Under the pieces are notes generated by a model. The model was not told the origin of the DNA. It saw only the letters and a program-made list of their open reading frames with translations, and ran no database searches. 64,000 nt of DNA, taken from Candidatus Saccharimonadia bacterium (GTDB lineage Bacteria; Patescibacteriota; Saccharimonadia; UBA4664). Numbering within the stretch: the stretch's first letter is position 1; every line of letters starts with the position of its first letter. Both the position numbers and the translations under genes were made by a program. The DNA lies in NCBI GenBank assembly GCA_035544015.1, contig DATKIP010000076.1, positions 299 through 64,298 on the forward strand. The letters run 5' to 3'. Below are positions 1,699 through 27,558 of the stretch, in pieces.

Positions 1699-2256
1699 AT
1701 GATTGCAACTCTGCGTGGCGTCGTCACCGAAAAGCTCGAAACCAGCCTCGTACTCGAAGCGGGCGGCGTCGGCTACGAATTATTCGTCACGGTCGACGAA
1801 TGGGGGAGTGCCGAGCTTGGTGCCGTGGCCACGTATTACATCTCCGAGCAAATTCGCGAAGATGCGCACAATCTCTACGCCTTTAGCGCCCGCGCCTCCA
1901 AGCAACTCTTCGCCCAACTCATCGCCGTCAACGGCGTCGGCCCCAAAGTGGCGCTGCAAATTCTCTCGGCCGCCGGCGAATCGCGCCTTCGCCAAGCCAT
2001 TAACTCCAACGACCCCGCACTGCTCAAGGGCATCACCGGCGTCGGTCCCAAAACCGCCCACCGCGTCATCATGGAGCTGCGCGGTAAAGTAGAGGAGGGG
2101 AGCGCCGGCCTCGCGCCGGTGGCCGACCCCACCTACCAGGGCCTCGTGGCGCTCGGTTACACGCCCGCGCAGGCCACCGCCGCCGTCGCGCAGATTCCCG
2201 CCGACATCTCAGGTGACCAATCCCGCCTCAAAGCCGCCCTCAAGCAGGTCAAATAA
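1699..2256 (+). CDS. ruvA: Holliday junction branch-migration protein RuvA
   Basis: N-terminal OB-fold region (MIATLRGVV...GVGYEL). Tandem HhH motifs (NGVGPKVALQIL and GITGVGPKTAHRVIMEL). C-terminal RuvB-interaction domain. Confidence 0.9.
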   Translation: MIATLRGVVTEKLETSLVLEAGGVGYELFVTVDEWGSAELGAVATYYISEQIREDAHNLYAFSARASKQLFAQLIAVNGVGPKVALQILSAAGESRLRQAINSNDPALLKGITGVGPKTAHRVIMELRGKVEEGSAGLAPVADPTYQGLVALGYTPAQATAAVAQIPADISGDQSRLKAALKQVK

Positions 2257-2679
2257 ATGCCGGTACCAATCCTCAAAGTCGCCGCCAAAGCCGTCATCCT
2301 AGACCCCGCCGGCCAAGTGCTCATCCTGCGCGAAGGCCCGGCCGGCGACGGCAACACTAATGTCGGCCGCTACCAACTACCCGGCGGCAAGCTCGAACCC
2401 GGCGAGGCCTTCGCCGACGGCTTGGCGCGCGAGATCAAAGAGGAGACCGGCCTCACCGTCGAGGTCATCCGGCCGCTGCATGTCGGCGAGTGGCGGCCGC
2501 ATGTCCATGGCCAAACCCTGCAGATTGTTGGTATATTTATGCTCTGCCGCACCGAGGTTACAGACATTACCCTCAGCGACGAACACGACGATCATCAATG
2601 GATCGATCCCGCCCAGCGTCACCATTACGACCTCATGCCCCCGGAAGACGCCGTGATCGATCAGCTTATATCAGAATAG
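2257..2679 (+). CDS. NUDIX hydrolase
   Basis: Nudix box GGKLEPGEAFADGLAREIKEETGL, matching GX5EX7REUXEEXGU. Confidence 0.85.
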   Translation: MPVPILKVAAKAVILDPAGQVLILREGPAGDGNTNVGRYQLPGGKLEPGEAFADGLAREIKEETGLTVEVIRPLHVGEWRPHVHGQTLQIVGIFMLCRTEVTDITLSDEHDDHQWIDPAQRHHYDLMPPEDAVIDQLISE

Positions 2680-2716
2680 ACGCCAGCTACCCCCGTACGG
2701 TACGCTAAACACACCC

Positions 2717-3442
2717 ATGTCACCCAAGCCATCAGCCCCCAACCCTAGCGCCCGCCGCCTCCTCGACGCCCTCAGTATCGTCGCCAATGTTTCGGCTGTC
2801 GTCGGCGTGTTTCAGAACAAGTCGCATATCATTATCATTATCGCCGCCTCCCTGGCGCTTGCGACCGGCGCATACCTGCTGATCGGGCGCTGGGGCAAGC
2901 CGCTCGGTCGCCAAGCCGCCTTCGTCATCCTCATGATGCTCGCGGGCAGTTCCACGCTGGCCGTCTCCATCGACCGCCTCGTTCTCGGCACGCCGTCTCA
3001 GCCCATTTTCGGCCCCCCAGCGAGCCCCACGCCGTCGGTCGCTCCCAGTTCTTCCCCCAGTCCCACGCCCAAACCCCTCTTCAGCGGCGCCATCACGCTC
3101 ACTAGCGGAGACGCCATCGACCTCGAAGCCGGCGGACGGATCACGCCCAATCAATCCCTCGCCACCGGCTCAAATGACCTATTCCTCAATGACACCAACG
3201 GCCTCGCCGCCAACGCCGACCACGCCGACTTTTACAGCGCGACCAACACATCCGAAAGCGAGGCCTATGCCCGCTGTGTATATCTCATTACCAACGACAA
3301 ATACCGTTCACTTGGTGCGTATTATGTGAGCGCCAACGACCAATATTGTTTCAAAACCTCCGACGGCCACATCGCCTGGTTTCGCAGCGTTCAGTCCGAA
3401 ACCCACAAGAAAGTTTTGAGCATTCGCGTTTGGGATAAATAA
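2717..3442 (+). CDS. hypothetical membrane-anchored protein with a Pro/Ser/Thr-rich linker
   Basis: N-terminal hydrophobic segments, a PSPTPSVAPSSSPSPTP linker, and a C-terminal globular part with Cys residues. Confidence 0.55.
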   Translation: MSPKPSAPNPSARRLLDALSIVANVSAVVGVFQNKSHIIIIIAASLALATGAYLLIGRWGKPLGRQAAFVILMMLAGSSTLAVSIDRLVLGTPSQPIFGPPASPTPSVAPSSSPSPTPKPLFSGAITLTSGDAIDLEAGGRITPNQSLATGSNDLFLNDTNGLAANADHADFYSATNTSESEAYARCVYLITNDKYRSLGAYYVSANDQYCFKTSDGHIAWFRSVQSETHKKVLSIRVWDK

Positions 3443-3534
3443 TCCGGCCCCACCCACCCGTTGCATATTCGCTTTTTGTTCGGTATAATGGACTCAGTCC
3501 ATAAGATATACTGACATTCAGAAGGGGTAGAAAT

Positions 3535-3783
3535 ATGTCTCTCACACGCGAAGACCTAGGCCAAATCCAAACCATCATCAACGATGCCACCAAGGGGCTG
3601 GCAACGCGAGAAGAGCTCAAGGCAGTCACTGCAAAGCTGGCTACCAAAGCCGATTTGAGGATAGAGCTCGATCGCATGGAGTCTCGGATCACCACTAGTA
3701 TGGGCTTGCTCGAACGCGACACCCTGAGCCGCCTCGACCAGCACGAAGCCCGCATCGCCCGACTGGAGCAGGCGCGCAGCTAG
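3535..3783 (+). CDS. small coiled-coil protein (hypothetical)
   Basis: 82 aa ORF with heptad-like charged repeats (DLRIELDRMESRITT...). Similar in style to the ORF at 56931..57200. Confidence 0.5.
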   Translation: MSLTREDLGQIQTIINDATKGLATREELKAVTAKLATKADLRIELDRMESRITTSMGLLERDTLSRLDQHEARIARLEQARS

Positions 3784-3853
3784 CCCCGCGCCACGCCAGG
3801 AATCTTCAACGCATCCCACTATCGATAGTAACCCGGTTTTTGGTAAGGTAATT

Positions 3854-4624
3854 TTGCGTAGTCATCCGAGTCCTGTAGGAGGACGCATGTCAGTAGGTCT
3901 GCTCGAACGCCCGGGTCCGGACGCCCTCCCGCGTCCCGAGACCTGGGCGGAATGGCTCACCGATCGCGCCGCCCGGCTCGAGGACTTTCTGCGCCGGCGC
4001 TCCGAGGAGCTGTTCGTCGGCGATCAGTTCGTCGCCCTGTGGCTCCCGGCTCGCCCGGGAATCACCTTCCACTACAAGTCCCGAGCCACGCTCGACCGGT
4101 TCAAGGAGGCGCCAGCCCCGCGGGCGGTCATCGCGGCCCATCGCCAGCAGTACGGCCTCACCGAGGCGGCCGCCCAGCTCCACTGGCGCGAGCTCATGCG
4201 CTACTTCGCCCTGGGCACCGTGTTCTCGTTCCCCTTCGGCATGACCTCGGAGGTGATCGACCACATCTGGCACGAGCTAGTGGAGCGCGACAACCACGGC
4301 GCGTGGGCTCGACAGGTCAGCCGCGTCGGCATCGGCCACCAACCCAGTGGCTCCGGCGACCCCGACCTCAACACCGACGGGCTCTTCCGGCTGGCCTACC
4401 GGCTGACCTTCAAGGAGGAGGCGCCGCATCACCTCTGGCCGCGCGATGGAGCATCATCGTGCTTCTTCTGTCCCAGCCCGGACGAGCCGGCGCCGCCTCG
4501 GCGACCGATCGAACCAGCTCCCTGGCCGTCGCAGTCGGCCGGCGAGGCGCTCTGCGGTCGCGTAAGCCGCGGGCTGACCAATGACTGGTGGCGGCACGTT
4601 CCGCCGCTTTCGGCCACGGCCTAG
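3854..4624 (+). CDS. hypothetical protein (GC-rich orphan; true start may be the internal Met near 3887)
   Basis: About 70% GC ORF between ruvA and ruvB with no recognisable motifs. Several antisense ORFs overlap it. Confidence 0.4.
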   Translation: MRSHPSPVGGRMSVGLLERPGPDALPRPETWAEWLTDRAARLEDFLRRRSEELFVGDQFVALWLPARPGITFHYKSRATLDRFKEAPAPRAVIAAHRQQYGLTEAAAQLHWRELMRYFALGTVFSFPFGMTSEVIDHIWHELVERDNHGAWARQVSRVGIGHQPSGSGDPDLNTDGLFRLAYRLTFKEEAPHHLWPRDGASSCFFCPSPDEPAPPRRPIEPAPWPSQSAGEALCGRVSRGLTNDWWRHVPPLSATA

Positions 4625-4735: not shown

Positions 4736-5755
4736 ATGATCGAGCGCATCGTCAATCCCGAAGTCCCCGAATCGCCCGCGGCCGAGGCCGAAGAGCGGAC
4801 GCTCGAGACGTTGCGCCCCAAGTCCTTCGCCGCCTACGTGGGCCAAAACCTGCTCAAGCAAAACCTCAAACTCGCCATCGACGCCGCCAAGCACCGGGGC
4901 GAGCCGGTCGACCACATCCTGCTCTACGGCCCGCCCGGCCTCGGCAAAACCACCATGGCCGGCGTCATCGCCACCGAGCTGGGCGCCAATCTGCGCGTCA
5001 CGAGCGGCCCCGCCATCGAGCGCGCCGGCGACCTCGCCAGCCTCCTCACCAACCTGGCCGACGGCGATGTGCTGTTCATCGACGAGATCCACCGCCTCCC
5101 CAAAACCGTCGAAGAAGTGATGTACCCCGCCATGGAAGACTTCGGCCTCGACGTCATGCTCGGCAAGGGCCCGTCCGCCAAATCCATTCGCCTCGACCTC
5201 CCGCGCTTCACCATCATCGGCGCCACCACCCGCGCCGGCGCCCTCAGCGCCCCCCTGCGCGACCGTTTCGGCCATGTCCACCGGCTCGAGTACTACTCGC
5301 CACCCGAAATGATCGAGGTCATCGAGCGCGCCGCCGGCATCCTAGGCGTCAAGCTGGCTCGCGACGCCTCCGAAGAAATCTCCACCCGCGCCCGCCTCAC
5401 CCCGCGTATCGCCAATCGCCTCCTCAAGCGCGTGCGCGACTACGCGCAGGTCAACCAGGTCGACACTATCACGCGCAAAGAGGCCCGCGCCGCCCTCCAC
5501 CTCCTCGAAATTGATGACCTCGGCCTCGACAACGCCGACCGCCAGCTCCTCCAGGCCATCATCACCCACTACGCCGGCGGCCCGGTCGGCCTCACCACGC
5601 TAGCCGCCATCTGCTCCGAGGAAGCCACCACCATCGAGGACGTCTACGAACCCTACCTCATGCAAATCGGCATGCTTGAGCGCACCTCGCGCGGCCGCCG
5701 TGTCACCCCCAAAGCTTACACGCACCTCGGCCTCACCCCGCCGGCCGCACCGTGA
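4736..5755 (+). CDS. ruvB: Holliday junction DNA helicase RuvB
   Basis: AAA+ Walker A ([12 protein letters not shown]), Walker B ([10 protein letters not shown]), sensor regions and a C-terminal winged helix. Classic RuvB length. Confidence 0.93.
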
Positions 5756-7324: not shown

Positions 7325-7875
7325 GGCTTTATATAGGCATTAAGTGCAATCGCGTACACGATCGGTTTTGATTTATCAGGCCGGCTAATGGCGAGGTTGG
7401 TGATGTTGGTGAAACGGTTGAGTTTCTCAACCTTGGCCGTAAAATTCTGCAATTGATCGTACGACCCCGACAGCTGAAAACTAATCGGCAGCGCCAGCAC
7501 CGTCCCGCTCTTCACCGTCTGCGAAGTCCCGGTGGGCAGACCCACGGGGCTGGGCATATTCACACTCGCAATCGCCAGCCCCTGCTGGGCCGCGATGTTT
7601 TGCAGCTGAGCCAAAATCTCGGTTTGCTTCTTGTCGCGCGGCAAGGCTTCGTCAAGCAGCGACAAAATCGGCACAATGTCGCGGTCGTATTGGCGTTTAA
7701 GCCGGCTGAGCGTCTCGATCTGCCGATCGGCGTCGGCCTGCGCCGCCAATCCCACCGAAAGTTGCTGCGAGCTAGCCGTCACTTGCTGCAAAGCAAAGTA
7801 GTAGCCCACCCCGGCCAGCAGCACCGTCCCGCCAAAAACCCCGAGCAATACCAAGAAAAACTGCTTCGGTTTCAT
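7321..7875 (-). CDS. pilO: type IV pilus assembly protein PilO
   Basis: N-terminal TM, coiled coil, and a PilO-like C-terminal domain. It sits after pilN with overlapping stop/start. Confidence 0.75.
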   Translation of the reverse strand: MKPKQFFLVLLGVFGGTVLLAGVGYYFALQQVTASSQQLSVGLAAQADADRQIETLSRLKRQYDRDIVPILSLLDEALPRDKKQTEILAQLQNIAAQQGLAIASVNMPSPVGLPTGTSQTVKSGTVLALPISFQLSGSYDQLQNFTAKVEKLNRFTNITNLAISRPDKSKPIVYAIALNAYIKP

Positions 7876-8417
7876 TTGGCTTGCCCCGGCTTAAACGCCA
7901 CCACCACACTGGTCTGATAACTGCCGCTGGTGTTGGAGCTGATCGTTTCCAGGTCGGCGTTGGCGATCCGCGGCGAGGTGATGAGCGCGTTGCGAAACGC
8001 CAGCGCGCCGGCGTAGCTGGCCGCCGTCACCGTGATCCGCACCGCCGTCTTGTCGTCGCCCGTGAGCGTCATGCTGTCGATCGACACCCCCTGCGGCACC
8101 ACCTTGGCGATATCCGCCACCACCGACGAAAACCGCGTCTGGCTCACCTGCACGTACTTGATCGCCGCCAGCCGGTCGCTCGCGTCCTTGGCCTTGGGCG
8201 TGAAGGTCTTGTTGAGAGCCGCAATCGTGGCCTGCTTTTCGGCCACATCATTCGCCACGGCGGTAGTTTGCTGGTGGAGCAGGTAGAGGCTGCCCGCAAA
8301 GATTACCCCGAGCACCACCGCCACCGCCACCGATGTCCGCACATACACAATTGCAATCCGGTTGAGCTTGGCGTAGCGAATCTGCTCTTTTTGATCGGGC
8401 GGCAAGAGGTTGATCAC
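7872..8417 (-). CDS. pilN: type IV pilus assembly protein PilN
   Basis: Characteristic MINLLP start, a single TM and a periplasmic domain. It overlaps pilM. Confidence 0.8.
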   Translation of the reverse strand: MINLLPPDQKEQIRYAKLNRIAIVYVRTSVAVAVVLGVIFAGSLYLLHQQTTAVANDVAEKQATIAALNKTFTPKAKDASDRLAAIKYVQVSQTRFSSVVADIAKVVPQGVSIDSMTLTGDDKTAVRITVTAASYAGALAFRNALITSPRIANADLETISSNTSGSYQTSVVVAFKPGQAK

Positions 8418-10923: not shown

Positions 10924-11513
10924 AGATTCGTCTTAAAATTACGCAATGTTACACGCGTCGTTAGCGACACCGGTACACTCAGCTGCTTGGCTTTGGGGTT
11001 GGCCGCCACATAAATCCCGATCGCCCGCACCTGGCTCGTCGCAAAGCCCGGGGAAAGCACGTTGCCGGCATCATCGTAATACGTAAACATGGTATTGGAC
11101 CCCATCGCCAAATCCACGCGCGTAATCGTCGGCTTCTCGGGATTGTTGTTGTAGGTGGCCGGGATCGCCGCGCTATCCGGGTCGGTGACGCCGATCACCA
11201 GGTTGTTGCCGCTGATGTAGTAGCGAATCTTCTTGATCACCGTGTCGGCCGGCGAGAAATAGCCGTAAACCGTAACCGTATTGGGCTGAGCACTGAGCAC
11301 CCCGGTCGTCCCCCGGAGCACCTTGCCGATCCGCGCCGACAGCGTCGAGAGCTCGGTCGAGGTGTCCGATTGAGCCTGCAAAAACGCATACGACGTCAGC
11401 CCCTTGTAGCTAAACATCACGAGCGGCACCGCGATCATCGCCGTCAGCGTCATCACCACGAGCAATTCAATGAGGCTGTACCCCCCCTGATCGAGCCGTT
11501 TACGGAGTAACAT
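10920..11513 (-). CDS. prepilin-type N-terminal cleavage/methylation domain minor pilin
   Basis: GYSLIELLVVMTLTAMIAV is a class III signal with Glu at +5. Confidence 0.8.
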   Translation of the reverse strand: MLLRKRLDQGGYSLIELLVVMTLTAMIAVPLVMFSYKGLTSYAFLQAQSDTSTELSTLSARIGKVLRGTTGVLSAQPNTVTVYGYFSPADTVIKKIRYYISGNNLVIGVTDPDSAAIPATYNNNPEKPTITRVDLAMGSNTMFTYYDDAGNVLSPGFATSQVRAIGIYVAANPKAKQLSVPVSLTTRVTLRNFKTNL

Positions 11514-12879
11514 TCAAGCCTCCTGTCTGTGTCGCCGTATTCCCGCTGTTCGTCACCGCAAGGTCCCATGCACCGGTTGCCGCTCCCGTGAGACTCACAT
11601 TGCAAGTGATGATCGTGTTGCCCACGCTCGAAGCGCAGCCGGTAGCCGCAATGTCCGATTGACCGGCCTTCTTGAGCTTTACGCTCGTGCCGGTCGGAAC
11701 GTTGGCCCCAGTAATTTTGAGCGAAAAGGTGCTCGTGCCGGTCTGTTGCGTCAGCGGCGTCGCTTGGCTGATGCGCGGATACGAGCTGGAGGTGCTCACC
11801 ACCAGATTGGCCGTCGACGACGAATTCGCTCCCAGCGCCAGGGGCGCATAGGGCGACACCGTGACCACGTAATACCCCGTCGGAACCGCAAAATTATAAC
11901 CCGTCAGATCAAATTCCATCCCGCTGAGCGTGATATCGCCGGTCGCGTTGGTGGCCGTAGCCTGCGAATATTTGTACACTGTGGGGCTCTGCTTAATCGG
12001 TTTGGTGCCCGAAGTCGTGACGCTCAGAGCATTCATCGGATTGCCGCTCGTATCCGTCACATGCACGTAAAAGGTCGAGAGCCGATCGATCGTCAGCGTA
12101 ATCGGATTAATTTGTTGTGCCAAAACATTCATATTGAGCTTCACCGCCGTCTGCGCGCCCGGCGGCTCCGGAATCGTACCGTCCGTCGAGTAACCCGGCA
12201 GGCTGGCCGTAATTTGATAATTGTTGTTCGAGTCCGGCGGCAGTTTCGGAATCACCACTACGCCCAAATTATCGGTCGTGGTAGCAATATTCACATCCGG
12301 GTTGGGCACCGTATTCACGATCGTCACGTTCGCGTTCGGCACCGGCTGGCCGTTCGCATCGAGCACCGTGATGCTCAAAATACCCGTGTTCGACGACGTC
12401 TCGGCCGCTTTGCCCGCAATATCCGTCGACAGCGTCGAAACCACCTTGCCGCTCGACACCAGCTTCACCGTTATTTGCGCCTTTTTATAATCATACGGAT
12501 ACAAATCCTTGGGTTTGCCCGCCGCCGGCCCGCTCCCGCACGGGCACGAAATAAACCCGTCATACGGATCGTCCACAAAATTGAGGTCGGTGTGGACGCT
12601 GAATTTAAAATTGCCCCGCGTCACCGTTTCGTTGTCGAGGATATTGCCCGGCGGATAAATCGTCCCGCTCTGCGTCGCCAATGAATCGTACGGTAGGTCA
12701 CGCAGCGTCTCCATTTTCTCATTGGCCAGCGCCACCCCGATAGCTCGCGACTTACCAAGCACAACCGTGTTGATATTCGAGATATACAGCTCGCCAATAG
12801 CCGCCACCATCAGCGCCATAATCACAGCCCCAAACACTACTTCGACCAGCGTAAACCCACCTTCGTTTGCGCGCTTCAT
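11500..12879 (-). CDS. large minor pilin (about 460 aa) with a prepilin N-terminus and beta-rich, probably Ig-like, extracellular domains
   Basis: The start was reassigned to MKRANEGGFTLVEVVFGAVIMALM (prepilin signal, Glu at +5). The track ORF extends further upstream through a non-coding-looking Arg/Pro/Thr-rich stretch. Confidence 0.7.
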   Translation of the reverse strand: MKRANEGGFTLVEVVFGAVIMALMVAAIGELYISNINTVVLGKSRAIGVALANEKMETLRDLPYDSLATQSGTIYPPGNILDNETVTRGNFKFSVHTDLNFVDDPYDGFISCPCGSGPAAGKPKDLYPYDYKKAQITVKLVSSGKVVSTLSTDIAGKAAETSSNTGILSITVLDANGQPVPNANVTIVNTVPNPDVNIATTTDNLGVVVIPKLPPDSNNNYQITASLPGYSTDGTIPEPPGAQTAVKLNMNVLAQQINPITLTIDRLSTFYVHVTDTSGNPMNALSVTTSGTKPIKQSPTVYKYSQATATNATGDITLSGMEFDLTGYNFAVPTGYYVVTVSPYAPLALGANSSSTANLVVSTSSSYPRISQATPLTQQTGTSTFSLKITGANVPTGTSVKLKKAGQSDIAATGCASSVGNTIITCNVSLTGAATGAWDLAVTNSGNTATQTGGLNVTP

Positions 12880-12982
12880 GTCCCCATTATAACGCTTATG
12901 CTGAAGAAAGCACCGCGGCCTTCGCTCGGGCAATACCAAAACCGACCCCGTAGGGTCGGTCTCAGAAATTTGCGGCAGGGGA

Positions 12983-13447
12983 CTAGTTGCCGTTGACGAC
13001 TTCGAACTTCTTCGCACTCGCCGATCCGCAACTGCTATCGGTCGATACGCTGGCACCACTGTCCTGGTCATTCTCCAAGCAAGCCTTAAGCGTGTAGGTC
13101 GAGTCCGAGTTGGCCGGGGTGTAGGTGTAGACATACACACCAGTATTCTTCGGGTCGGTGGGCAACGTCTTAACGATGGGTGCGGTACCACTGCTCAATT
13201 CCGAAAGAACAGTGCCCGAGCCTACGGCTCCACTACTAGCGGGGTACACATTATTATTAACAAAATATTCTTCCAGACCTTTGCGCAAAGTCGTAATGTC
13301 GGTCTTGCGCTTCGTGTCGCGGGCCTTCTTGGGCGCGGACGTAATATTCGGGATGATCAACAACGCCAAGATGCCAATGATCACAATCACGATCAAAAGC
13401 TCGAGGAGGGTAAATCCGCCCTGTTTCTTTAATGATGCAATGGACAC
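12983..13447 (-). CDS. pilA: type IV major pilin (PilA-like)
   Basis: KKQGGFTLLELLIVIVIIGILA prepilin signal. The C-terminus has a Cys pair (disulfide D-region). An AGGAGGTG RBS lies upstream. Confidence 0.85.
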   Translation of the reverse strand: MSIASLKKQGGFTLLELLIVIVIIGILALLIIPNITSAPKKARDTKRKTDITTLRKGLEEYFVNNNVYPASSGAVGSGTVLSELSSGTAPIVKTLPTDPKNTGVYVYTYTPANSDSTYTLKACLENDQDSGASVSTDSSCGSASAKKFEVVNGN

Positions 13448-13504: not shown

Positions 13505-13533
13505 ATCATAAAGCGCTTAAGGTTTAATGTCAA
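13505..13533 (-). promoter_or_regulatory. sigma70-like promoter for pilA (TTGACA-17 bp-TATGAT on the minus strand)
   Basis: On the minus strand, TTGACAttaaaccttaagcgctttATGAT lies about 60 nt upstream of the pilA ATG, ahead of the AGGAGGTG RBS. Confidence 0.45.
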
Positions 13534-13540
13534 TGACACC

Positions 13541-13578
13541 CGCAAGGCCAAAGTCCCGCCCCGGCAAGTGCGCCGGAG
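13541..13578 (-). terminator. GC-rich hairpin downstream of the GH26 gene (possible attenuator/terminator between the pilBC-GH26 and pilA units)
   Basis: gtcccgccccggcaagtgcgccggagcgggac is a nested perfect inverted repeat followed by a short T tract on the minus strand. Confidence 0.35.
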
Positions 13579-13591
13579 CGGGACAGGCCTC

Positions 13592-14677
13592 CTAGGAGGC
13601 GAAGACGGACACGTACTGCCGGAAGGCAGCCCGCGAAGCGGTTGCGGTCGAGAGTGGGACCGGGTAGATGCGCCAGTCGTTCGGGTTGTCGGCGGTGGCC
13701 GGATGGTCGAAGTAGTTCACGAGGATCACGTTGTACGCCGGGGCCACGGTGCGCATCCACTCGCCCAGCTGCTGGTCCCACTGGGCCTTGCTGTGGCCGT
13801 TCTGGGCCGCACCCGAGGCCGGCTCGCTGCTGCCGGTCTCCCCGACGATGTACGGCTTGTCGAGCGGAGCTAGCGCCCGAATCGCCGTGATCGTGGCCTG
13901 CCGCACGTTGGTGGGCGTGCGCCAGGAGTACGGGTCGCTCGCGCCGTCCGACGTCGACCGGTTGTAGCCGTCGTCGCCGACGTACTCCGTATTGTCGTTG
14001 CCGGGATAGAAGTTGGCGAACGAGGTTTTGCCGTCCCGAAGAATATTCGGGCACCAGTAGAAGGACAGCCCCGGGAACGCCGTGCGCATGGTGTTGCGAA
14101 TGCGCTGCCACGCCGGCCCGAATTGCGCGGGCGTGTTGTGGTTCGGATTATCGCCCCCGAATGTCCAGGGGTAGAAGGTCCCGTTGGCCTCGTGCAGCGG
14201 CCGCACGATGATCTCGTGGCCGGGGTGGGCTGCTACCCATGTCTTCATCTGGCCGGCGATCCGACTCATGTTCGCGTCTTGGGCGCCGGCGCCGATGTGG
14301 GCCAGCGTGTCCCACGTCTCGATCGTGACGATGTGGTGGTTGATCCACCGCGCCGCCTCGCCGTTGAGCAGAGCCGTGTCGAGGTCCTGGCTCTGACTCA
14401 TGTAGCTGGTGTTCCAGTCGAGACGTGCCACACCCATGGCACTCAGGGTGGCGTCGAGCGAGCCGAGGTTGTCGGCGTCGGTGCCGAGCACGGCCGGCAG
14501 ATACGCCGCCGCCGTGGCCGCCGTGGCCGCCGTGGCCGCCGTGGCGGCAGCCGGAACCGCTGTGGCTGCCAGCACCGCCGGAACGATACCCGCCGCCGCT
14601 AGCGTCGCGGCGACGAGCAGCCGGACAAACCGTCCTTGCCGTAATCCTTGCATGGTATTCCCCCGTCTCGGTGCCAA
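13592..14677 (-). CDS. secreted glycoside hydrolase, GH26 (mannanase)-like
   Basis: Signal peptide, then an (AAT)n tract. RPLHEANGTFYPW resembles the GH26 acid/base region (..HE.N). IVGETG resembles the nucleophile region. GC is about 68%. The likely start is the Met near 14653. Confidence 0.6.
   Translation of the reverse strand: MAPRRGNTMQGLRQGRFVRLLVAATLAAAGIVPAVLAATAVPAAATAATAATAATAAAYLPAVLGTDADNLGSLDATLSAMGVARLDWNTSYMSQSQDLDTALLNGEAARWINHHIVTIETWDTLAHIGAGAQDANMSRIAGQMKTWVAAHPGHEIIVRPLHEANGTFYPWTFGGDNPNHNTPAQFGPAWQRIRNTMRTAFPGLSFYWCPNILRDGKTSFANFYPGNDNTEYVGDDGYNRSTSDGASDPYSWRTPTNVRQATITAIRALAPLDKPYIVGETGSSEPASGAAQNGHSKAQWDQQLGEWMRTVAPAYNVILVNYFDHPATADNPNDWRIYPVPLSTATASRAAFRQYVSVFAS
14510..14548. 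repeat. tandem 9-bp repeat (ccgtggccg x about 4) encoding (Ala-Ala-Thr)n in the GH26 signal region
   Basis: A direct tandem repeat is visible in the sequence. It corresponds to AATAATAATAAT in the protein. Confidence 0.8.
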
Positions 14678-14784
14678 CAGGCACCGTGGTGTGCCTGTTG
14701 GTAGGGCTAAGGGTCAGGAGCCCAGGAGACCAACAGGTAGGTCTTTATACCACAATATATTTCCTTGTACAAGGCAAACGGGGC

Positions 14785-16011
14785 TTAGATCGAATTCCCA
14801 ATGCTCGAAATCGGTCCAAATACACTAATCACAATGAATCCCACCATACCCCCCAGCACAATGATCAAAATCGGCTCAATGATCGAGGTAATGCCCGACA
14901 CCACCGTATCCACCTCTTTTTCATAGAATTCCGCCAGCTTCAGCAAAATCGAATCCAGCTGCCCCGTCTCCTCGCCCACGCTCAGCATCTGGCCTACGAT
15001 CGCCGGGAAGTTTTTCGAAGCCCGGATGTGCTCGCTCATCGGCCGGCCGTTTTTCACCTTTTGTGCCACTTCCGCCAGCTCGTCTTGGTACACACTATTG
15101 CCCAGCGCCGTCTTGGTCGCATTAATCGCGTCGAGCACCGAAATCCCCGAGGCCATCAGCGAGCCAAAGGTGCGCGAAAACCGCGCAATGTTGACCTTCA
15201 CGATGATCGGCCCAAAAATCGGCGCCTTCAAAATCAATCGGTCAATCGTGCGCTTGCCCCCCGGCGTCTTGCGCCAGCGAATAAACAGCACCACTGCCGC
15301 CACAAACCCGCCAATCACAAAATACCAGTCGTTTACCAAAAAATGCGAAATCGCCAGCATGATTTTGGTGTAAATCGGCAGCTGTGCCCCCGCGTCTTCA
15401 AAAATGCTCGAAAGCTTCGGCACGATCACCGTCATCAAAAAGAAAAACGCGCTCACCGTGGCCGTCGTAATGACCGCCGGATAAATCATGGCGCTGCGCA
15501 CCTTGCTCACCACCTCGGCGTCTTTTTCTTGCTGCGTCGCCAGCCGGTCGAGCACCTGATCCAAAATACCGCCGGTCTCCCCGGCCTTCACCATGTTCAC
15601 GTAGATCGGATTGAACACCTCCGGGTGTACCGCCAGTGCGCTGGCCAGCGTCGAGCCCCCTTCCACCTGTTTCGACACCTCCGCCACCGTTTTTTTAAGT
15701 TTTTGGCTCTCCGTTTGTTCGCGCAAAATGTTCAGCGATTGCACGATCGGCACGCCGGCGTTAATCATGGTGGCAAACTGGCGGCTGAAGACCACTTTGT
15801 CTTGGAGGCGCACCCCTTTGCCAAGCGATAATCCGCCGGTCAGGAGGCCTTTGAGCCCGGGCCCTTTTTCGCCCGCAGCTTCTTTGACAAGAATCGGCGT
15901 CAGGCCCTTTTCCACCAGGCTGGCCGTAGCTGCTGGGCGGTCCGCCGCAAAGACCGAGCCCTTCGTGATGGCGCCGCTTTTATCCCGCGCGCTGTAGCTA
16001 AATTGCCCCAT
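14785..16011 (-). CDS. pilC: type IV pilus assembly protein PilC (GspF family platform protein)
   Basis: Two GspF repeats and three TM segments. It sits next to the pilB ATPase. Confidence 0.88.
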   Translation of the reverse strand: MGQFSYSARDKSGAITKGSVFAADRPAATASLVEKGLTPILVKEAAGEKGPGLKGLLTGGLSLGKGVRLQDKVVFSRQFATMINAGVPIVQSLNILREQTESQKLKKTVAEVSKQVEGGSTLASALAVHPEVFNPIYVNMVKAGETGGILDQVLDRLATQQEKDAEVVSKVRSAMIYPAVITTATVSAFFFLMTVIVPKLSSIFEDAGAQLPIYTKIMLAISHFLVNDWYFVIGGFVAAVVLFIRWRKTPGGKRTIDRLILKAPIFGPIIVKVNIARFSRTFGSLMASGISVLDAINATKTALGNSVYQDELAEVAQKVKNGRPMSEHIRASKNFPAIVGQMLSVGEETGQLDSILLKLAEFYEKEVDTVVSGITSIIEPILIIVLGGMVGFIVISVFGPISSIGNSI

Positions 16012-18026
16012 TATTCGCGCGTTACCCGCAGGATTTCTTCGATCGTCGTTTTGCCCTGCAGCGCCTTTACAAAGCCGTCTTGCTGCATCGTGAGCATGCC
16101 GGCGCGCACCGCCGCCATCTGGATGTCGTCCGAAGTAGCGCGGCCCACGATCATCTTCGACACCGTATCGTCTACCTCGAGCACCTCATAGATGCCCATG
16201 CGCCCCTGATACGCTGCGCCGCCGCATGCCTCGCAGCCGGGGCCAGGCTTAAACAACATAAACTGCCCGGCCTTCAAATCTTTGGGGCTAGCGGCAGGCT
16301 GGGCGGGCTTGGCCGGTTCCGTTGCGGCCGTCGTCGCCACCGCTACCGGCAGCGCCGCCGGCTTGGGCTTGCCCGCATCGGCGGCGCTGCGGTTGATGAT
16401 GTTTGGATCGGCGGCGATTTTATCCAAAATGCTTTTGGCCGTGTCGATGTCGTGCTCGGGGTTGATCACCCGGCCCTTTTTATGCTCTGTCGGCACCATC
16501 ACCTGCGGCACAGGCGCCAGCGGCGCCGCATCGGGGGCAGCCGCGGCTACCAACGGCTTCTCGGGCGCGCCCTTCAGGTCGTTGAAGCGCTTCAGCGCTG
16601 CGTCAAGCGCAAAATCGCGCTTGACGTTCGTCAGCTCCACGCCCTCGGGAATGTACCCGATACGGCACACCTGGCACAGCCGCCGCACCAGCCGCTGCCC
16701 GATCACCGTGTTGACCGTGCTCGCGATCAAAAACGCCTCCAGCCCCATGTCGAGCAAGCGGGGGAGCGTGGTAGCCGCATTATTCGTGTGCAGTGTCGAG
16801 AGCACCACATGCCCCGTCAGCGCCGCCTGCACCGCCAGGTCGGCCGTCTCGCCGTCGCGAATCTCACCCACCATGATGATGTTCGGGTCCTGCCGCAGCA
16901 ACGCGCGCAGTCCCGCCGCAAACGTCATGCCCGTCTTCGGATTCACCTGCGTCTGGTTTACCCCCTGCACCCGGTACTCCACCGGGTCTTCCACCGTGGA
17001 AATATTCACCCCCGGCGTATTGAGCAGGCTCAGTATGGAATACAGCGTGGTCGATTTACCCGATCCCGTCGGCCCCGTCACGAGCGTCATGCCGTGCGGT
17101 TTGTGCAGATTGCGTACGATCGCCTCCAGCGCGTGGCCGGTAAAGCCCAGCTCCTCGAGCGTCAGCGCCCGCGCGCTCTCGTCCAAGATACGCATCACCA
17201 CCTTTTCGCCGTCCATGATCGGCAGCGTGCTCACCCGCAACGCCACCTGCTTGCTGCCCATCGCAAACTTAAACCGCCCGTCTTGCGGCACCCGGTGCTC
17301 ATCTATTTTCAAATTCGCCAAAATCTTAATGCGGCTCACCACCGCGGCCAAAATCGGCTTCGGTAGCGTCATCGTCTCGCGCAGCACCCCATCCACCCGG
17401 TAGCGCACCTGCACAATGTTCTCGCGCGGCTCCAGATGAATATCCGAGGCGCGGCTCTTAATGGCGTACTCCAAAATCACGTTCACCGTCTTGGCGATCG
17501 GCGCGTCCTCAGCCAGGTCCTTGGCCGAAATTTTTTCCTCCGAAGCGCTCGCGTCCGCCGAAGAATCCTTGATAGCCTTGGTAATCTCGTTCGAAATGTT
17601 GCCTTTGTACTGATCGATCGCTGCCAAAATATCCGCGGCCGTCGCGATGTAGGTCTTGAGCTTGCCACCCACCTGCTTCGTGATGAAGTCTGCCGCCTGA
17701 AAGTCTTCCGGGTCGGCCATCGCCAGCTGCAGCGCATCCTCTTCGGCGCCAAACAGCACCACCTGGTACTTGCGCGCAATCCGCTCCGGAATCTTCAGCA
17801 GCTGCTCTCGCGGAATCTTGATCTCCGATAGTTCCACAAACGGCACATCGATACTCTTGGCGTACAGCTTCACCAGGTCTTTATCGCTGATGAGCTTCTT
17901 TTTGAGCACCGCCGTCTGCAGCGATTCACTCCCTTCGCTCTTGGGCATCGCATCTTCAATCACCTCCGGCTTCACTAAACCAGAGTCGAGCAACAACTTT
18001 TTGAGCTCACCGTCAGATATGCGCAT
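16011..18026 (-). CDS. pilB: type IV pilus assembly ATPase PilB (GspE family)
   Basis: N-terminal GspII_E N domains, Walker A GPTGSGKSTT, Asp/His boxes, and a C-terminal tetracysteine (CQVC...CEAC) interrupted by an Ala/Pro-rich insertion of about 90 aa. Confidence 0.92.
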   Translation of the reverse strand: MRISDGELKKLLLDSGLVKPEVIEDAMPKSEGSESLQTAVLKKKLISDKDLVKLYAKSIDVPFVELSEIKIPREQLLKIPERIARKYQVVLFGAEEDALQLAMADPEDFQAADFITKQVGGKLKTYIATAADILAAIDQYKGNISNEITKAIKDSSADASASEEKISAKDLAEDAPIAKTVNVILEYAIKSRASDIHLEPRENIVQVRYRVDGVLRETMTLPKPILAAVVSRIKILANLKIDEHRVPQDGRFKFAMGSKQVALRVSTLPIMDGEKVVMRILDESARALTLEELGFTGHALEAIVRNLHKPHGMTLVTGPTGSGKSTTLYSILSLLNTPGVNISTVEDPVEYRVQGVNQTQVNPKTGMTFAAGLRALLRQDPNIIMVGEIRDGETADLAVQAALTGHVVLSTLHTNNAATTLPRLLDMGLEAFLIASTVNTVIGQRLVRRLCQVCRIGYIPEGVELTNVKRDFALDAALKRFNDLKGAPEKPLVAAAAPDAAPLAPVPQVMVPTEHKKGRVINPEHDIDTAKSILDKIAADPNIINRSAADAGKPKPAALPVAVATTAATEPAKPAQPAASPKDLKAGQFMLFKPGPGCEACGGAAYQGRMGIYEVLEVDDTVSKMIVGRATSDDIQMAAVRAGMLTMQQDGFVKALQGKTTIEEILRVTRE

Positions 18027-18153: not shown

Positions 18154-19932
18154 GTGCTCACTATGCGGTTTCGGATTGCGGTTTGCGTTAGTGTCTTGGT
18201 TGGTTATTTATTCGCTCAAACGGGGCTCATATCCTCGGTCGCCGCAGCCTCGAGCAGCGGCATTGTTATTTCCGGGCTGCAGCAGGCCGGCAGCGCCAAG
18301 GCCACCGATGAATACGTCGAGCTCCTCAATACTTCCGGCAGCACCGTCTCGCTGTCTGGCTGGAAGCTCCAATACCGCGCCGCTTCCAGCGCCAATGGCA
18401 CCGACTGCACCAAAGGCTGGGCCACCAAAACCACTATCACCGATGGGATCATTCCGGCCGGCGCACACTTCCTGCTTGCTTCTAGCGGCTATCTCGCTGC
18501 CGACGCCGGCTTTGCCTCCGGTTTGGCGTCCGTTGGCACGGTGCGGATCGTAAATGACGCGCAGGTCACCGACGACGCAGTGGCGTGGGGCGCCGCTAGC
18601 TGCGGTACCGGGCAACCCGCCGCCGTGCCACCGGCCGGCTCCAGCCTCGAGCGCCACGCCGGCACCGAGGGCGCCCATGGTGACAACGCACTCGATTTCT
18701 TTGTGCAGACCCAGCCGTCGCCTCGCGCTTTGTCGGCAGCCGCGGCGCCGCCTGTCGCTACACCACCCGCCGCCGGGTCGTCCGGCCCAGCCGCGCTCGA
18801 GCTCAGCGAACTGCTCGTCGACCCGGTCGCACCGAGCACCGACAGCCGTGACGAATTCATCGAGCTTCACAATGGCGGCGACGTGCCGATCGAGCTGGGC
18901 GGCTACGTCATCCGGACCGGCACCCACAATTACCCGCTACCGGCTGGCACCCTCGAAGCCGACGGCTACTACGTCGTCACCTCCGGCGGCTCCACCATCT
19001 CACTTTCAAATTCCGGGGGCGTGGCCAACCTCATTGACCCCTCCGGGACCGTCATCGATACCGCCGCCACCTGGGAAACCGCCGTGCCTGGCGCCAGCTG
19101 GGCCTTTGTGGACGACGCGTGGCGCTGGACGCTCACGCCCACGCCCGGCGCCGCCAACGAGTACACGCCCGTACCCGGCACCGCCGGCGCCGAAGGCTCG
19201 GCCGATTACGCCGTCGTGGAGCTCAATGAGCTTCTACCCGACCCCGTAGCGCCCCTCACCGATGCCTCCGACGAATTCATTGAGATTTACAACCCCGGTG
19301 ATACTGAGGTCGATCTTACCGGATACGTTCTCAAGACCGGCCACGATCTTACGAGCAAATATGTCATAAAAGACGTCACGGTCGGCCCCGGAGGCTACAT
19401 AGCCCTCAAATCTGCCGACACCAAGCTCTCACTCGCCAATACCGGCAGCTCCGTGGCACTCTACACCCCCGACGGCGCCCAGCTGGGCGCCACAGCGACG
19501 TACCCCAAGACCACCACCGGCGACGCCTGGGCCCGCTTCGACGACGGCTGGCATTGGACCGGCCAGCCCACGCCCGGCGCCGCCAACCTCCTCGCCGCAC
19601 CCGGTACCGCCGCAGCCGCCGCCAAAACCGCGGCCGCCAAAGCTACCAAGCCCAAAGCCGCCGCGGCCGCCAAGCCCAAAGCCGCCGCCAAACCCAAAGC
19701 CACCAAATCGGTCACGACCCCGCTCACCAATGCCGCCAGCACGCCGGCCGGCCGCTGGTTGCTATTTGTCTTGGCCGGGCTCACGATTGCCTATATCATG
19801 TATGAATTCCGCTATGACCTACGAAACTACTACCACAAACTCCGAGGGTACCCAATCGGTCGCCCGGCGCCTGTCCCGGCTCTTGTCGGGCGGGGAGGTG
19901 GTGGAGTTGGCAAGCGATCTGGGCGGGGGTAA
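18154..19932 (+). CDS. cell-surface protein with three lamin-tail (LTD) domains, a Lys/Ala-rich tract and a C-terminal TM anchor
   Basis: Signal peptide, then three repeats of the LTD signature (DEYVELLNTSGSTVSLSGWKL; DEFIELHNGGDVPIELGGYVIRTG; DEFIEIYNPGDTEVDLTGYVLKTG). An AAAKTAAAKATKPKAAAAAKPKAAAKPKATK tract follows, then a TM segment WLLFVLAGLTIAYIMY. Confidence 0.75.
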   Translation: MLTMRFRIAVCVSVLVGYLFAQTGLISSVAAASSSGIVISGLQQAGSAKATDEYVELLNTSGSTVSLSGWKLQYRAASSANGTDCTKGWATKTTITDGIIPAGAHFLLASSGYLAADAGFASGLASVGTVRIVNDAQVTDDAVAWGAASCGTGQPAAVPPAGSSLERHAGTEGAHGDNALDFFVQTQPSPRALSAAAAPPVATPPAAGSSGPAALELSELLVDPVAPSTDSRDEFIELHNGGDVPIELGGYVIRTGTHNYPLPAGTLEADGYYVVTSGGSTISLSNSGGVANLIDPSGTVIDTAATWETAVPGASWAFVDDAWRWTLTPTPGAANEYTPVPGTAGAEGSADYAVVELNELLPDPVAPLTDASDEFIEIYNPGDTEVDLTGYVLKTGHDLTSKYVIKDVTVGPGGYIALKSADTKLSLANTGSSVALYTPDGAQLGATATYPKTTTGDAWARFDDGWHWTGQPTPGAANLLAAPGTAAAAAKTAAAKATKPKAAAAAKPKAAAKPKATKSVTTPLTNAASTPAGRWLLFVLAGLTIAYIMYEFRYDLRNYYHKLRGYPIGRPAPVPALVGRGGGGVGKRSGRG

Positions 19933-24667: not shown

Positions 24668-24744
24668 TGGTGCCCCGGGTAGGACTCGAACCTACGACCC
24701 TTGGCTTAGAAGTCCACTGCTCTATCCAACTGAGCTACCGGGGC
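24668..24744 (-). tRNA. tRNA-Arg (anticodon TCT)
   Basis: Cloverleaf read by hand: acceptor GCCCCGG/CCGGGGC, D arm, T arm GTAGG-TTCGAGT-CCTAC, CCA encoded. Anticodon loop CTTCTAA. The anticodon stem has only three Watson-Crick pairs. Confidence 0.7.
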
Positions 24745-24767
24745 AGGTCCAGAGCCCGATCATTGTA

Positions 24768-25766
24768 TCAGATGTGGTTTTCGCCACCAAAAATTTTGGA
24801 CACCGACTCGTCCAAATAAATCGCCTTAATCGCCGCCGCCACCAAAGGAACCACCGACACCACTTCGACCTTGTCGAGATTTTTGCCTTCCGGAAGGGGC
24901 AAAGTATCAGTCACAACGATCCGATCAATCGGCGACGCCGCCAACCGCTCCAGCGCCGGGTCGGACAAAATCCCGTGCGTCGCCATCGCATAAATTTCCG
25001 CCGCGCCCGATTCTTTGAGCAGCTGCGCCGCCGCACAAATCGTGCCGGCCGTGTCGATCATGTCATCGATCAGCACGCATCGCCGGCCCGCCACCTCGCC
25101 GATCACATTTTTGGCCTCTACGGTGTTGGCCTGCGTCTTCGAGCGCGTCTTGTGAATAATCGCAAAATCCGCCCCCAGCCGGCGCACATACCGCTCCGAG
25201 GTCTTCACGCGCCCAGCGTCCGGCGACACGATCACTACGTCACCACCCAGCTGATCGCGAATATAATCCGATAGCACCGGCAGCGCCGTGAGGTGGTCAA
25301 ACGGTCCGTCAAAAAAGCCCTGAATCTGGCCGGTGTGCAAATCCACGCTCACAATCCGGTCGGCCCCCGCCGCCGTCAGCATATCCACGAGCAGCTTGGC
25401 CGTAATCGGCTCCCGGCCGCTCGATTTGCGGTCCTGCCGCGCGTACCCAAAATACGGGCATACCGCCGTGATCCGCTTGGCCGAAGCCCGCTTGGCCGCG
25501 TCGATAATAATCAATTGCTCCATAATGGCGTCGTTGACTGGCTGGTCGTGGGTCGAAAACACAAACACATCTGCCCCCCGTGCCGACTCACCCAGCTTCA
25601 CCGAAATTTCACCATTCGCAAATCGGTCCAGCTTCATATCTGACAGCGGCACATCAATATGTTTCGCCACCGCCTGGGCCAGCTTGCCATTATGCGATCC
25701 GGACAGAATTTGCAATCGCTTTTTGGTCGTAATTTCCATCGCCATATCAGCCCCACTGTACCACAC
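24768..25766 (-). CDS. prs: ribose-phosphate pyrophosphokinase (PRPP synthetase)
   Basis: KLDRFANGEISVKLGESARGADVFV and a PRPP-binding loop (VLIDDMIDTAGT). The likely start is MAMEITTKK, near 25745. Confidence 0.92.
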   Translation of the reverse strand: MWYSGADMAMEITTKKRLQILSGSHNGKLAQAVAKHIDVPLSDMKLDRFANGEISVKLGESARGADVFVFSTHDQPVNDAIMEQLIIIDAAKRASAKRITAVCPYFGYARQDRKSSGREPITAKLLVDMLTAAGADRIVSVDLHTGQIQGFFDGPFDHLTALPVLSDYIRDQLGGDVVIVSPDAGRVKTSERYVRRLGADFAIIHKTRSKTQANTVEAKNVIGEVAGRRCVLIDDMIDTAGTICAAAQLLKESGAAEIYAMATHGILSDPALERLAASPIDRIVVTDTLPLPEGKNLDKVEVVSVVPLVAAAIKAIYLDESVSKIFGGENHI

Positions 25767-25855
25767 CCTATCTTATGTAAAAACCACCAATGCCCGAAGC
25801 CCGCAAATATCATTTCATAATTACGGCCATTCTCTCGAAGAAAGCAGGGTAGGCA

Positions 25856-26230
25856 ATGCGAAGAGGGCTACGAGTTTCACTCGCCGCCGCCGGCCTTATG
25901 GCCGCCGCCTGTGGGTCAAACGCCGGCACGCCATCTACCCCGTCCGACACCGACGCTCAGTCCGGCTACACGATCAGCGTTCAGGATGAATGCATCCGGC
26001 TCCACGGGCAGGACTCCAACGCCCGCGGCCGAGACGGGCAAGGCTCCACCGGCTGGTTCTGCCAACTGCCGGGCGGCACCGAGGTGCCGTTCACCGCTGC
26101 CGACATGCAGTCGGCCTGCGACCACCAGCACCCCGGGCGCACCCGTGCCGTTCAGCTGTCCACCACACCGCCGCCCGGCGGCAACTCCGTCTGGGTCTGC
26201 CGGCCGACCAAGCCGGTGCCAACCCCTTAG
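25856..26230 (+). CDS. putative lipoprotein (hypothetical)
   Basis: Signal peptide with a lipobox-like AAC at the cleavage site, and four further Cys residues. GC-rich. Confidence 0.5.
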   Translation: MRRGLRVSLAAAGLMAAACGSNAGTPSTPSDTDAQSGYTISVQDECIRLHGQDSNARGRDGQGSTGWFCQLPGGTEVPFTAADMQSACDHQHPGRTRAVQLSTTPPPGGNSVWVCRPTKPVPTP

Positions 26231-26288
26231 CCGCACTACCGGAGCAAGAAAGCCGCCCCGGTAGGCGGCTTTCTTGCAGAATAATTCC

Positions 26289-26365
26289 TGGAGCGGGTGA
26301 GGGGAATCGAACCCCTATAGCCTGCTTGGAAGGCAGGAACATTAACCGTTATGCTACACCCGCGC
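26289..26365 (-). tRNA. tRNA-Gly (anticodon TCC)
   Basis: Acceptor GCGCGGG/CCCGCTC, anticodon arm CCTGC-CTTCCAA-GCAGG, T loop TTCGATT, CCA encoded. Confidence 0.85.
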
Positions 26366-26410
26366 ACATATCTAGGCAGCAAATCCATCTCATTATACAA
26401 TAGTCACAAG

Positions 26411-27340: not shown

Positions 27341-27344
27341 TTCC

Positions 27345-27420: not shown

Positions 27421-27558
27421 ATAACTTGACAATTATAGGCGAGCGCAACCTAATTGGTCAAACCGTAATCGCCCGCCTAAAGTATTGCAATATTTCAAAA
27501 ATTATGGTATAAAACCTTAGTTGCTCATCCACAAACCAGCCGGTTCCCGGAGGAATCA

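Follow-up and report, generated by a model that had tools for sequence, protein, structure and literature searches.

Saccharibacteria find and hold their hosts by means of type IV pili (T4P) and host surface polysaccharides, and the proteins that set their host range are largely undefined. In the 64,000-nucleotide stretch of contig DATKIP010000076.1 from a Candidatus Saccharimonadia bacterium that was analysed here (the window), a gene for a glycoside hydrolase lies between the pilus genes pilC and pilA. Does this enzyme belong to the pilus, and where did it come from? An initial annotation had described the gene as GH26-like, GC-rich, embedded in the pilus operon and probably acquired horizontally, perhaps from an actinobacterial host. 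We consider it rather probable that the gene encodes a secreted, lichenase-like enzyme of glycoside hydrolase family 26 (GH26), gained horizontally as a cassette in a variable slot. What is new is a rare lichenase-like GH26 member in an unusual, apparently permissive position; the family itself is known. Placed next to the major pilin gene, in a slot where sister lineages have other small secreted or membrane proteins, a secreted glycanase confined to one lineage is a concrete, testable candidate for an accessory factor in host range. All coordinates of the pilus genes and of the inserted segment given below refer to the minus strand of the window.

The flanks of the hydrolase gene, with pilB, pilC, pilA, minor pilins and pilMNO, match those typical of T4P loci in Saccharibacteria (TM7x T4P-1/T4P-2; Xie et al. 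2022). Upstream are the co-oriented pilB (16011-18026) and pilC (14785..16011), which encodes the T2SSF platform protein (Pfam T2SSF, E = 5e-59). Downstream is pilA (12983..13447), which is major-pilin-like, with N_methyl and T2SSG domains in Pfam, and then come three further pilin-like genes (minor pilins) and pilM. PilB, PilC and PilM were identical to HVQ44049.1, HVQ44048.1 and HVQ44042.1 of Candidatus Saccharimonadia bacterium, which agrees with the lineage assumed earlier. In the four nearest lineages by PilC (85-88% identity), the order RNase Y, TsaD, TsaE, (LTD protein), pilB, pilC, pilA, minor pilins, pilMNO was kept, and pilA immediately followed pilC in all four. The pilA of the window was 70-81% identical to the gene immediately after pilC in the relatives.

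The survey took in 88 PilC loci, of which 15 were close and 73 distant. Eighty of these, including seven of the close ones, were contributed by a scan of metagenomes with PilC. The distant loci, about 40% identical in PilC, were used as negative controls only. In tblastn searches the hydrolase was absent from all 88 loci, including those of the 15 close relatives, and no pseudogene remnants of it were detected in the relatives. By blastn, homology with relatives runs as far as the pilC stop codon and is found again from 13533, the first base of the strongly conserved pilA promoter. Therefore, the segment 13534..14784 is extra in this lineage. This segment of about 1.25 kb, whose boundaries came from blastn and a multiple alignment, comprises a promoter-like module, a leader, the GH26 gene and a hairpin.

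The subclade of the hydrolase is rare. Among 5.8 billion proteins we found seven database matches. When 1.84 billion cluster representatives were searched exhaustively with phmmer, 11 matched at E<=1e-30 (38-54% identity); then came a sharp drop, below which there were generic GH26-like proteins (275 matches at E<=1e-10, 1744 matches at E<=1e-3). In a rough neighbour-joining tree, the hydrolase and the homologues P0001-P0006 formed a clade with 99% bootstrap support, and an Actinomycetota/Chloroflexota group, 27-35% identical, fell outside it. The clade is patchily distributed. P0001 (58% identity) is on a 54% GC contig binned as 'Candidatus Muproteobacteria' and has periplasmic phosphonate-binding neighbours; P0005 (39%) is on a 58% GC contig with Proteobacteria-like neighbours. 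P0003 (44%) and P0006 (40%) are on contigs of 76% and 72% GC, and their genes have a GC content at third codon positions (GC3) of 97% and 96%. The neighbours of these two gave no tblastn matches to the actinobacterial loci at hand, so their taxonomy can be read only from the GC content of 72-76%. P0002 (47%), on a 52% GC contig, belongs to Saccharimonadales, and the HrcA encoded next to it shares 74-85% identity with named Saccharimonadales proteins. There, guanylate kinase and hrcA are separated by P0002 and a small membrane open reading frame (ORF), an insertion that the close relative L174 lacks. Horizontal movement of the hydrolase gene, including two independent arrivals in Saccharimonadia, is thus well supported. 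Since the hydrolase was absent in every relative examined and its subclade is rare and patchily distributed, a lineage-specific accessory gene, horizontally gained, is the best reading. The horizontal acquisition proposed initially is therefore upheld by synteny and distribution, and the gene is far from being universally carried between pilC and pilA; composition contributed nothing to this result. As for the vehicle, no transposase was found in the window's pilus locus. Plasmid carriage was also considered and rejected; the only plasmid homologues were from Arthrobacter, Deinococcus and haloarchaea and were 28-31% identical.

The base composition deserves a separate account. The high GC and strong GC3 that had drawn attention to the gene were borne out by measurement: its coding sequence has 67.3% GC and 86.7% GC3, compared with 58.3% GC for the window. 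Taking the 66 ORFs of the window as the reference (mean GC 58.7%, sd 6.1; mean GC3 71%, sd 10), these values correspond to z scores of about +1.4 and +1.5, and 2.1% of same-size sliding windows reach or pass the GC of the hydrolase. The native housekeeping gene for RuvB (4736-5755) matches it, with 67.4% GC and 87.9% GC3. Several ORFs are higher, among them 929-1612 on the plus strand (71.8% GC, 92.5% GC3) and 3854-4624 on the plus strand (69.4% GC), both without a Pfam match. The Karlin codon bias of the hydrolase against the rest of the window ranked 51st of 66, less deviant than most, and its bias against the other high-GC3 genes was B = 0.319, the fourth lowest of 13. Its dinucleotide delta* ranked 11th of 66. 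Composition was rejected as evidence of transfer: the gene is high in GC yet within the native range, and neither codon usage nor dinucleotides revealed the atypicality that the initial annotation had anticipated. On its own, the elevated GC would have been misleading, and synteny and distribution supported the horizontal gain. This lesson holds even if the role of the enzyme is only nutritional.

Is the position beside pilA meaningful? Within the clade, the gap between pilC and pilA acts like a slot for variable cargo. Among close relatives it ranges from 91 to 2011 bp, and in three relatives it is only 87-123 bp, consisting almost entirely of the pilA promoter and leader. The gap of locus L086 (7228-7806) encodes a membrane protein of 95-111 aa, that of L095 (2022-2571) a protein of 119 aa, and that of L100 (970-2979, about 2 kb) three membrane or secreted proteins (84, about 230 and 103 aa). 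These alternative ORFs were not related to one another, nor to the small ORF beside P0002. As the slot has unrelated cargo in relatives, the position may reflect a permissive site and not function. Neither the presence nor the position of the hydrolase is conserved across the 88 PilC loci, contrary to what would be expected of a T4P component. Pfam assigns it to GH26 only, with no pilin-type N_methyl or Pil homology, and the neighbouring pilins do have N_methyl. The variable slot is, to us, the more interesting by-product of the analysis.

The insert also seemed to have signals of its own. Just 3′ of the pilC stop there is a promoter-like module at 14744..14772 (TTGTAC, 17 nt, TGgTATAAA with an extended -10). 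A similar module (TTGnnn-17-TGGTATAAA) heads the different insert of L086, and TTGTGGTATAAA occurs only in the window contig and L086-L088 among 176 loci. The 131-nt leader that contains the module (14654-14784) is unusually structured (fold z = -3.8) and includes a perfect 11-bp hairpin at 14674..14701 (inverted repeat I5). Rfam gave no match for the leader or the locus. After the hydrolase stop, a GC-rich 13-bp stem at 13553..13584, followed by a weak U tract (UUUGG), makes up a terminator-like hairpin, which folds at -45.2 kcal/mol (z = -4.9) and is aligned with the terminator hairpin at the end of the L086 insert. The right-hand edge of the insert is marked by the pilA promoter, TTGACA-17-TATGAT at 13505..13533, which scored 11/12 in the consensus scan and has invariant columns in all relatives. 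The promoter-like and terminator-like signals of the hydrolase are no more than suggestive. We find it best to describe the gene as a self-contained unit that separates the pilBC transcription unit from a separately promoted pilA, not as an integral member of a pilus operon. Of the description 'embedded in the pilus operon', the location between pilC and pilA and the common orientation hold, but the gap lies between units, carries promoter-like and terminator-like signals of its own and accommodates unrelated cargo in relatives.

The family assignment of the hydrolase, which had been based on the context of two motifs, now goes beyond motifs, because the Pfam cut-off was passed, a family profile matched a characterised GH26 enzyme and the predicted fold matched confidently. 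The coding sequence at 13592..14653 (353 aa from ATG), established from the gene call on the source contig, Pfam, the profile and the model, falls in a lichenase-like subclade of GH26. It matched Pfam PF02156 (GH26) at E = 1.7e-7, with a score of 31.4 bits where 20.2 is the gathering threshold, over model positions 134-238 of 311 (105 positions). Seven of the eight subclade members match Pfam GH26, the best at 8e-15. A profile built from the hydrolase and its seven database homologues matched CtLic26A, the lichenase domain of Clostridium thermocellum 'Endoglucanase H', at E = 2.8e-35 across about 235 positions, and the acid/base motif RPLHEANGxWYPW is common to both. Elsewhere, the profile matched GH26 mannanases only at about 1e-14 and beta-1,3-xylanases at 7e-5 or weaker. 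All PDB sequence matches at E<=0.001 were GH26 chains or fusion constructs with the CelH GH26 domain. NCBIfam had no family for the hydrolase or its homologues.

The structural model pointed in the same direction. An AlphaFold model built on the family alignment had a mean predicted local distance difference test score (pLDDT) of 83 and a predicted TM-score (pTM) of 0.81, with alternating strands and helices. Foldseek placed CtLic26A entries first (E about 1e-21, target-normalised TM-score 0.84-0.88, 25% identity), with GH26 mannanases and beta-1,3-xylanases far behind. The predicted catalytic acid/base is E155 (14189-14191) in the RPLHEANG motif (14180..14203), after strand beta-4, and strand 147-150 of the model indeed precedes it. 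The predicted nucleophile is E272 (13838-13840) in the GETG motif (13832..13843), at the end of strand beta-7; strand 268-273 of the model ends with this residue, and the GETG glutamate is aligned with the AEF glutamate of CtLic26A. In the subclade alignment H154, E155, N157, E272 and T273 are invariant, and both catalytic glutamate motifs are fully kept. As judged from the sequence threshold, the clan GH-A (beta/alpha)8 fold of the model and the predicted catalytic glutamate pair, the hydrolase is a member of CAZy family GH26, and it appears far closer to the lichenase branch than to mannanases or beta-1,3-xylanases.

Comparison with known enzymes refines this placement. CtLic26A, the endo-beta-1,3-1,4-glucanase domain of CelH (PDB 2bv9, 2cip, 2cit), is the closest solved relative and is alike in the predicted (beta/alpha)8 fold, the RPLHEANGxWYPW motif and the aligned nucleophile glutamate. 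However, the identity is 24-25%, and the hydrolase has 353 aa with extra loops against about 280. It is also a single-domain protein with its own putative signal peptide and an (AAT)4 linker, whereas CtLic26A is a module of a multi-domain cellulosomal protein, and it comes from an ultrasmall epibiont lineage, not from a cellulolytic Firmicute. GH26 beta-mannanases, such as Cellvibrio japonicus Man26A, Bacillus subtilis YdhT/ManB and Bacteroides ovatus BoMan26A, share the CAZy family, clan GH-A and the catalytic glutamate pair. Their matches to the hydrolase had E values of about 1e-14 to 1e-7 in the profile search and of about 1e-10 in the fold search, but the identity was 12-16%, the root-mean-square deviation 5-6 Å and the sequence aligned over the central third only. 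Nothing in these comparisons would lead one to predict mannanase activity.

The ORF list gives 13592..14677, which begins with TTG at 14677 and would encode 361 aa. The ATG at 14653 (353 aa) is the more likely start. The gene was called from this ATG on a 320-kb metagenome contig of the European Nucleotide Archive (ERZ27251635:k141_318506), and a GGGGG run lies 7-11 nt 5′ of it. The N-terminus is signal-peptide-like at residues ~1-37 (14543..14653), with an Arg-rich n-region followed by the hydrophobic stretch LLVAATLAAAGIVPAVLAATAV; a hydropathy scan placed a hydrophobic stretch of about 25 residues after the Arg-rich start. Residues 1-48 of the model have pLDDT < 50, and the N-terminal region differs among homologues in the family alignment. 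Hydropathy and pLDDT are in line with the earlier description of a secreted glycoside hydrolase. A Tat signal was considered and rejected: RQGRF is present, with no twin arginine, and for this reason Sec export was assumed. One subclade member does carry a Tat signal. The 9-bp tandem repeat noticed at the outset is real and perfect. It occupies 14508..14545 (repeat family D2), with 4.2 copies, 100% matches and a score of 76 in Tandem Repeats Finder. The repeat is in frame and encodes (AAT)4 between the signal-peptide-like segment and the catalytic domain, and it was found in no homologue of the family alignment.

What might the enzyme cut? Clues came from the neighbourhoods of its homologues. 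In about 23 loci, a distant GH26-like homologue adjoins a cellulose-synthase-like GT2 (Pfam Cellulose_synt, Glycos_transf_2). These loci are from Bifidobacterium, Mycobacterium, Mycolicibacterium, Gordonia, Arthrobacter, Lacisediminihabitans, Nitriliruptoraceae, Coriobacteriia and a Chloroflexota. The Actinomycetota genes among them belong to the lichenase-like branch, with the HExNG.WY.W motif and 27-35% identity to the hydrolase, but they form a separate clade, many have extra N-terminal domains, and they sit beside the synthase of their presumed substrate. The pairing resembles in its logic that of BcsZ with BcsA. Within the subclade, P0003 (L177:193-3892, 76% GC) lies in an exopolysaccharide (EPS)-type locus, between a glycosyltransferase of the PssD/PssE type, a FemAB-like acyltransferase and a polysaccharide tyrosine autokinase; these three neighbour matches were all under curated cut-offs and all in the same direction. 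Such contexts suggest, by analogy, that the lichenase-like branch of GH26 may act on bacterial beta-glucan-type exopolysaccharides. Unlike the Actinomycetota genes paired with GT2, the Saccharimonadia hydrolase is not accompanied by a synthase: no GT2 synthase was found in the 64-kb window or in the loci of the relatives, and for this reason the hydrolase may act on the polymer of another cell. Because homologues adjoin GT2 or lie in Wzy/BY-kinase EPS loci and no synthase is present here, the EPS of a host or neighbour would be the most likely substrate. The rare subclade, with about a dozen representatives worldwide, and its link with EPS loci point to an uncharacterised GH26 specificity.

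Taken as a whole, the explanation that we prefer would run as follows. The hydrolase would be a secreted, retaining endo-beta-glycanase of the CtLic26A-like subclade of GH26. The unit, with its promoter-like module, structured leader, coding sequence and terminator-like hairpin, would have arrived self-contained and landed in the variable slot between pilBC and pilA in one soil Saccharimonadia lineage. It would be an accessory gene from some outside donor and not part of the conserved pilus machinery. After export by Sec, the enzyme would cleave a beta-linked glucan-type polysaccharide outside the cell, most likely a bacterial exopolysaccharide of the host or a neighbour, and the products might feed a sugar-fermenting epibiont, or the glycan layer might be thinned. 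The (AAT)4 segment would be a low-complexity linker, in which slippage may alter the length without switching the gene off.

Several points weigh against this explanation. The promoter-like module failed the consensus scan, and its -35 hexamer matches at 3/6 positions; the hairpin after the stop is below the T-run criterion of the terminator scan. Read-through from pilBC may occur, and hence co-expression with the pilus genes. The N-terminus is a putative signal peptide judged by eye and by hydropathy. No direct or inverted repeats were found at the insert junctions, and no tRNA is nearby (the nearest is about 10 kb away). A foreign origin is neither proved nor disproved by base composition, which lends it no independent support. 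On the side of function, GH26 spans mannanases, beta-1,3-xylanases and lichenases, and because the identity to CtLic26A is 25%, the lichenase specificity is not transferable to the hydrolase. The EPS association was drawn from homologues that are only 27-44% identical, and the search for a partner synthase covered only 64 kb of the genome.

Among the other explanations, the one that survives best differs from the preferred one only in the source of the substrate, and the two overlap. Environmental beta-glucans as a food source would fit the data equally well. In its strict form, this explanation takes the enzyme as a purely nutritional beta-glucanase that scavenges plant, fungal or lichen-type mixed-linkage beta-glucan in soil or the rhizosphere, with an incidental position beside the pilus genes; we regard this as rather unlikely, though worth keeping in mind. 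It would suit the fact that the closest solved relative is a lichenase from a plant-biomass degrader. Several relatives come from metagenome contigs of the Joint Genome Institute, which we take from the dataset ids to be soil or rhizosphere samples. Other Saccharimonadales have variable secreted glycanases, for example a GH5 cellulase, and Patescibacteria are thought to live on sugars freed by their many glycoside hydrolases, fermenting them (PMC11665869). However, the homologues of other phyla lie in loci for polysaccharide synthesis and not in catabolic ones, and neither a sugar transporter nor a downstream catabolic gene accompanies the hydrolase at its locus.

The second explanation, close to the one in the initial annotation, is a recent transfer from an actinobacterial host, after which the enzyme, co-expressed with the T4P, trims host surface glycans for attachment. 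Saccharibacteria require their T4P to associate with hosts and to move, and host cell-wall polysaccharides matter in the T4P-mediated binding of TM7x (bioRxiv 10.1101/2024.11.25.624915). Gene transfer between Saccharimonadia and Actinomycetota has been documented elsewhere (bioRxiv 10.64898/2026.09.16.751625). In addition, Actinomycetota make up most of the best 80 genome matches to the broader GH26-like family, two subclade members are on contigs of 72-76% GC, one of them within an EPS locus, the hydrolase is about 9 GC points over the window mean, and its co-orientation between pilC and pilA allows read-through. The nearest relative points elsewhere, though. A best match in Actinobacteria had been expected, but the closest protein was P0001, 58% identical and on the 54% GC proteobacteria-like contig, and the named Actinomycetota homologues (27-35%) lie outside the clade, so that an actinobacterial donor was not borne out. 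The donor was possibly a high-GC organism, perhaps actinobacterial. As the best match is only 58% identical, we do not name one. Recent transfer is not indicated either, because codon usage is ordinary and RuvB has the same GC and GC3. The gene's own promoter-like and terminator-like signals, the separate promotion of pilA, the unrelated cargo of the slot in relatives and the second Saccharimonadales copy (P0002), which is away from pilus genes, also tell against a tie to the pilus. We therefore hold this explanation to be improbable, and host-glycan remodelling at the pilus contact site is speculation, for which only the EPS loci of the homologues give indirect support. The Saccharibacteria T4P loci described so far are not reported to include a glycoside hydrolase; in the passages on hydrolases and operons that were consulted (bioRxiv 10.1101/2024.11.25.624915), only lectin-like or hydrolase-like folds are described, in the C-terminal domains of minor pilins. 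Unlike those minor pilins, the hydrolase is predicted to be a separate secreted protein, and it has no pilin N-terminal methylation motif.

A bolder form of this idea would make the pilC-pilA gap a dedicated swap site, in which secreted or membrane cassettes are exchanged and expressed with the pilus. The present cassette would then be a GH26 enzyme from the EPS locus of a high-GC Gram-positive bacterium that cuts a GT2-made beta-glucan exopolysaccharide of the host, opens the way to the host surface for pili and cell, and acts as a host-range determinant. We think this doubtful, and more so than the simple host transfer, but a host-range cassette would be notable if true.

It is very unlikely that the gene is ancestral and native and was repeatedly lost in relatives. 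Its codon usage is like that of the other high-GC3 genes of the genome, and the promoter-like and terminator-like modules common to the window and L086 could be the remnant of an older cassette. Against this stand its absence, with no pseudogene remnant, from the 15 close and 73 distant PilC loci, the three relatives whose gap of 87-123 bp is nearly all pilA promoter and leader, the scattering of the subclade across unrelated taxa, and the other Saccharimonadales copy, which is at a different locus and 47% identical. An assembly or binning artefact, in which a foreign high-GC fragment was joined into a Saccharimonadia contig, might be suspected from the short-read metagenome assembly (a k141 contig) and the local step-up in GC, but it is scarcely credible, because the identical protein recurs on three contigs (0.2-1 Mb), where most of its neighbours are the same too, and conserved Saccharimonadia sequence lies on both sides in one contig, the junctions fall exactly at intergenic boundaries, the 5′ module is common to the window and L086, and the codon usage fits the genome.

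The survey of relatives yielded some further observations on the pilus locus. In L089, two Y1 transposase genes of the IS200/IS605 type, together with a GNAT acetyltransferase gene, lie between the LTD gene and pilB (2072-3825), and a Peptidase_S49 gene lies between the last minor pilin and pilM (11294-12358). Judging from these insertions, the whole T4P locus is plastic. L091 has two tandem pilA-like genes (146 aa each) after pilC (7351-8348). In the window, a gene at 18154-19932 on the plus strand, divergent from pilB, encodes a protein of 592 aa with three lamin-tail-domain (LTD) repeats and a C-terminal hydrophobic segment. It is kept in L086 and L089, is replaced in L091 by a protein without a Pfam match, and is absent in L093. 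The ORF at 11500-13191 on the minus strand is over-extended; the called gene has 459 aa, with the N_methyl motif from residue 108 of the long ORF, and encodes a large, CarboxypepD_reg-containing minor pilin.

Different glycan-active genes were met in other Saccharimonadales loci beside TatA/TatC. L174 (1-3113) has a Hyaluronidase_1-like protein and a chitin-synthase-like GT2, and L176 (1884-3062) has a GH5 cellulase. This suggests that the repertoire of secreted glycanases in Saccharimonadales is variable.

Finally, the window contains two regions of low GC. The first, at 28000-32000 (46-51% GC), adjoins a tRNA cluster for Arg, Gly, Pro and His (24668-28258) and contains a protein with Schlafen AlbA_2 and HATPase_c_4 domains (29853-31286). 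This stretch is a possible genomic island, and its composition deviates more strongly than that of the GH26 gene. The second, at 59600-63700 (42-52% GC), is associated with tRNA-Arg, tRNA-Arg and tRNA-Lys (59385-61799) and includes a BD-FAE / alpha-beta hydrolase esterase at 62553-63680.

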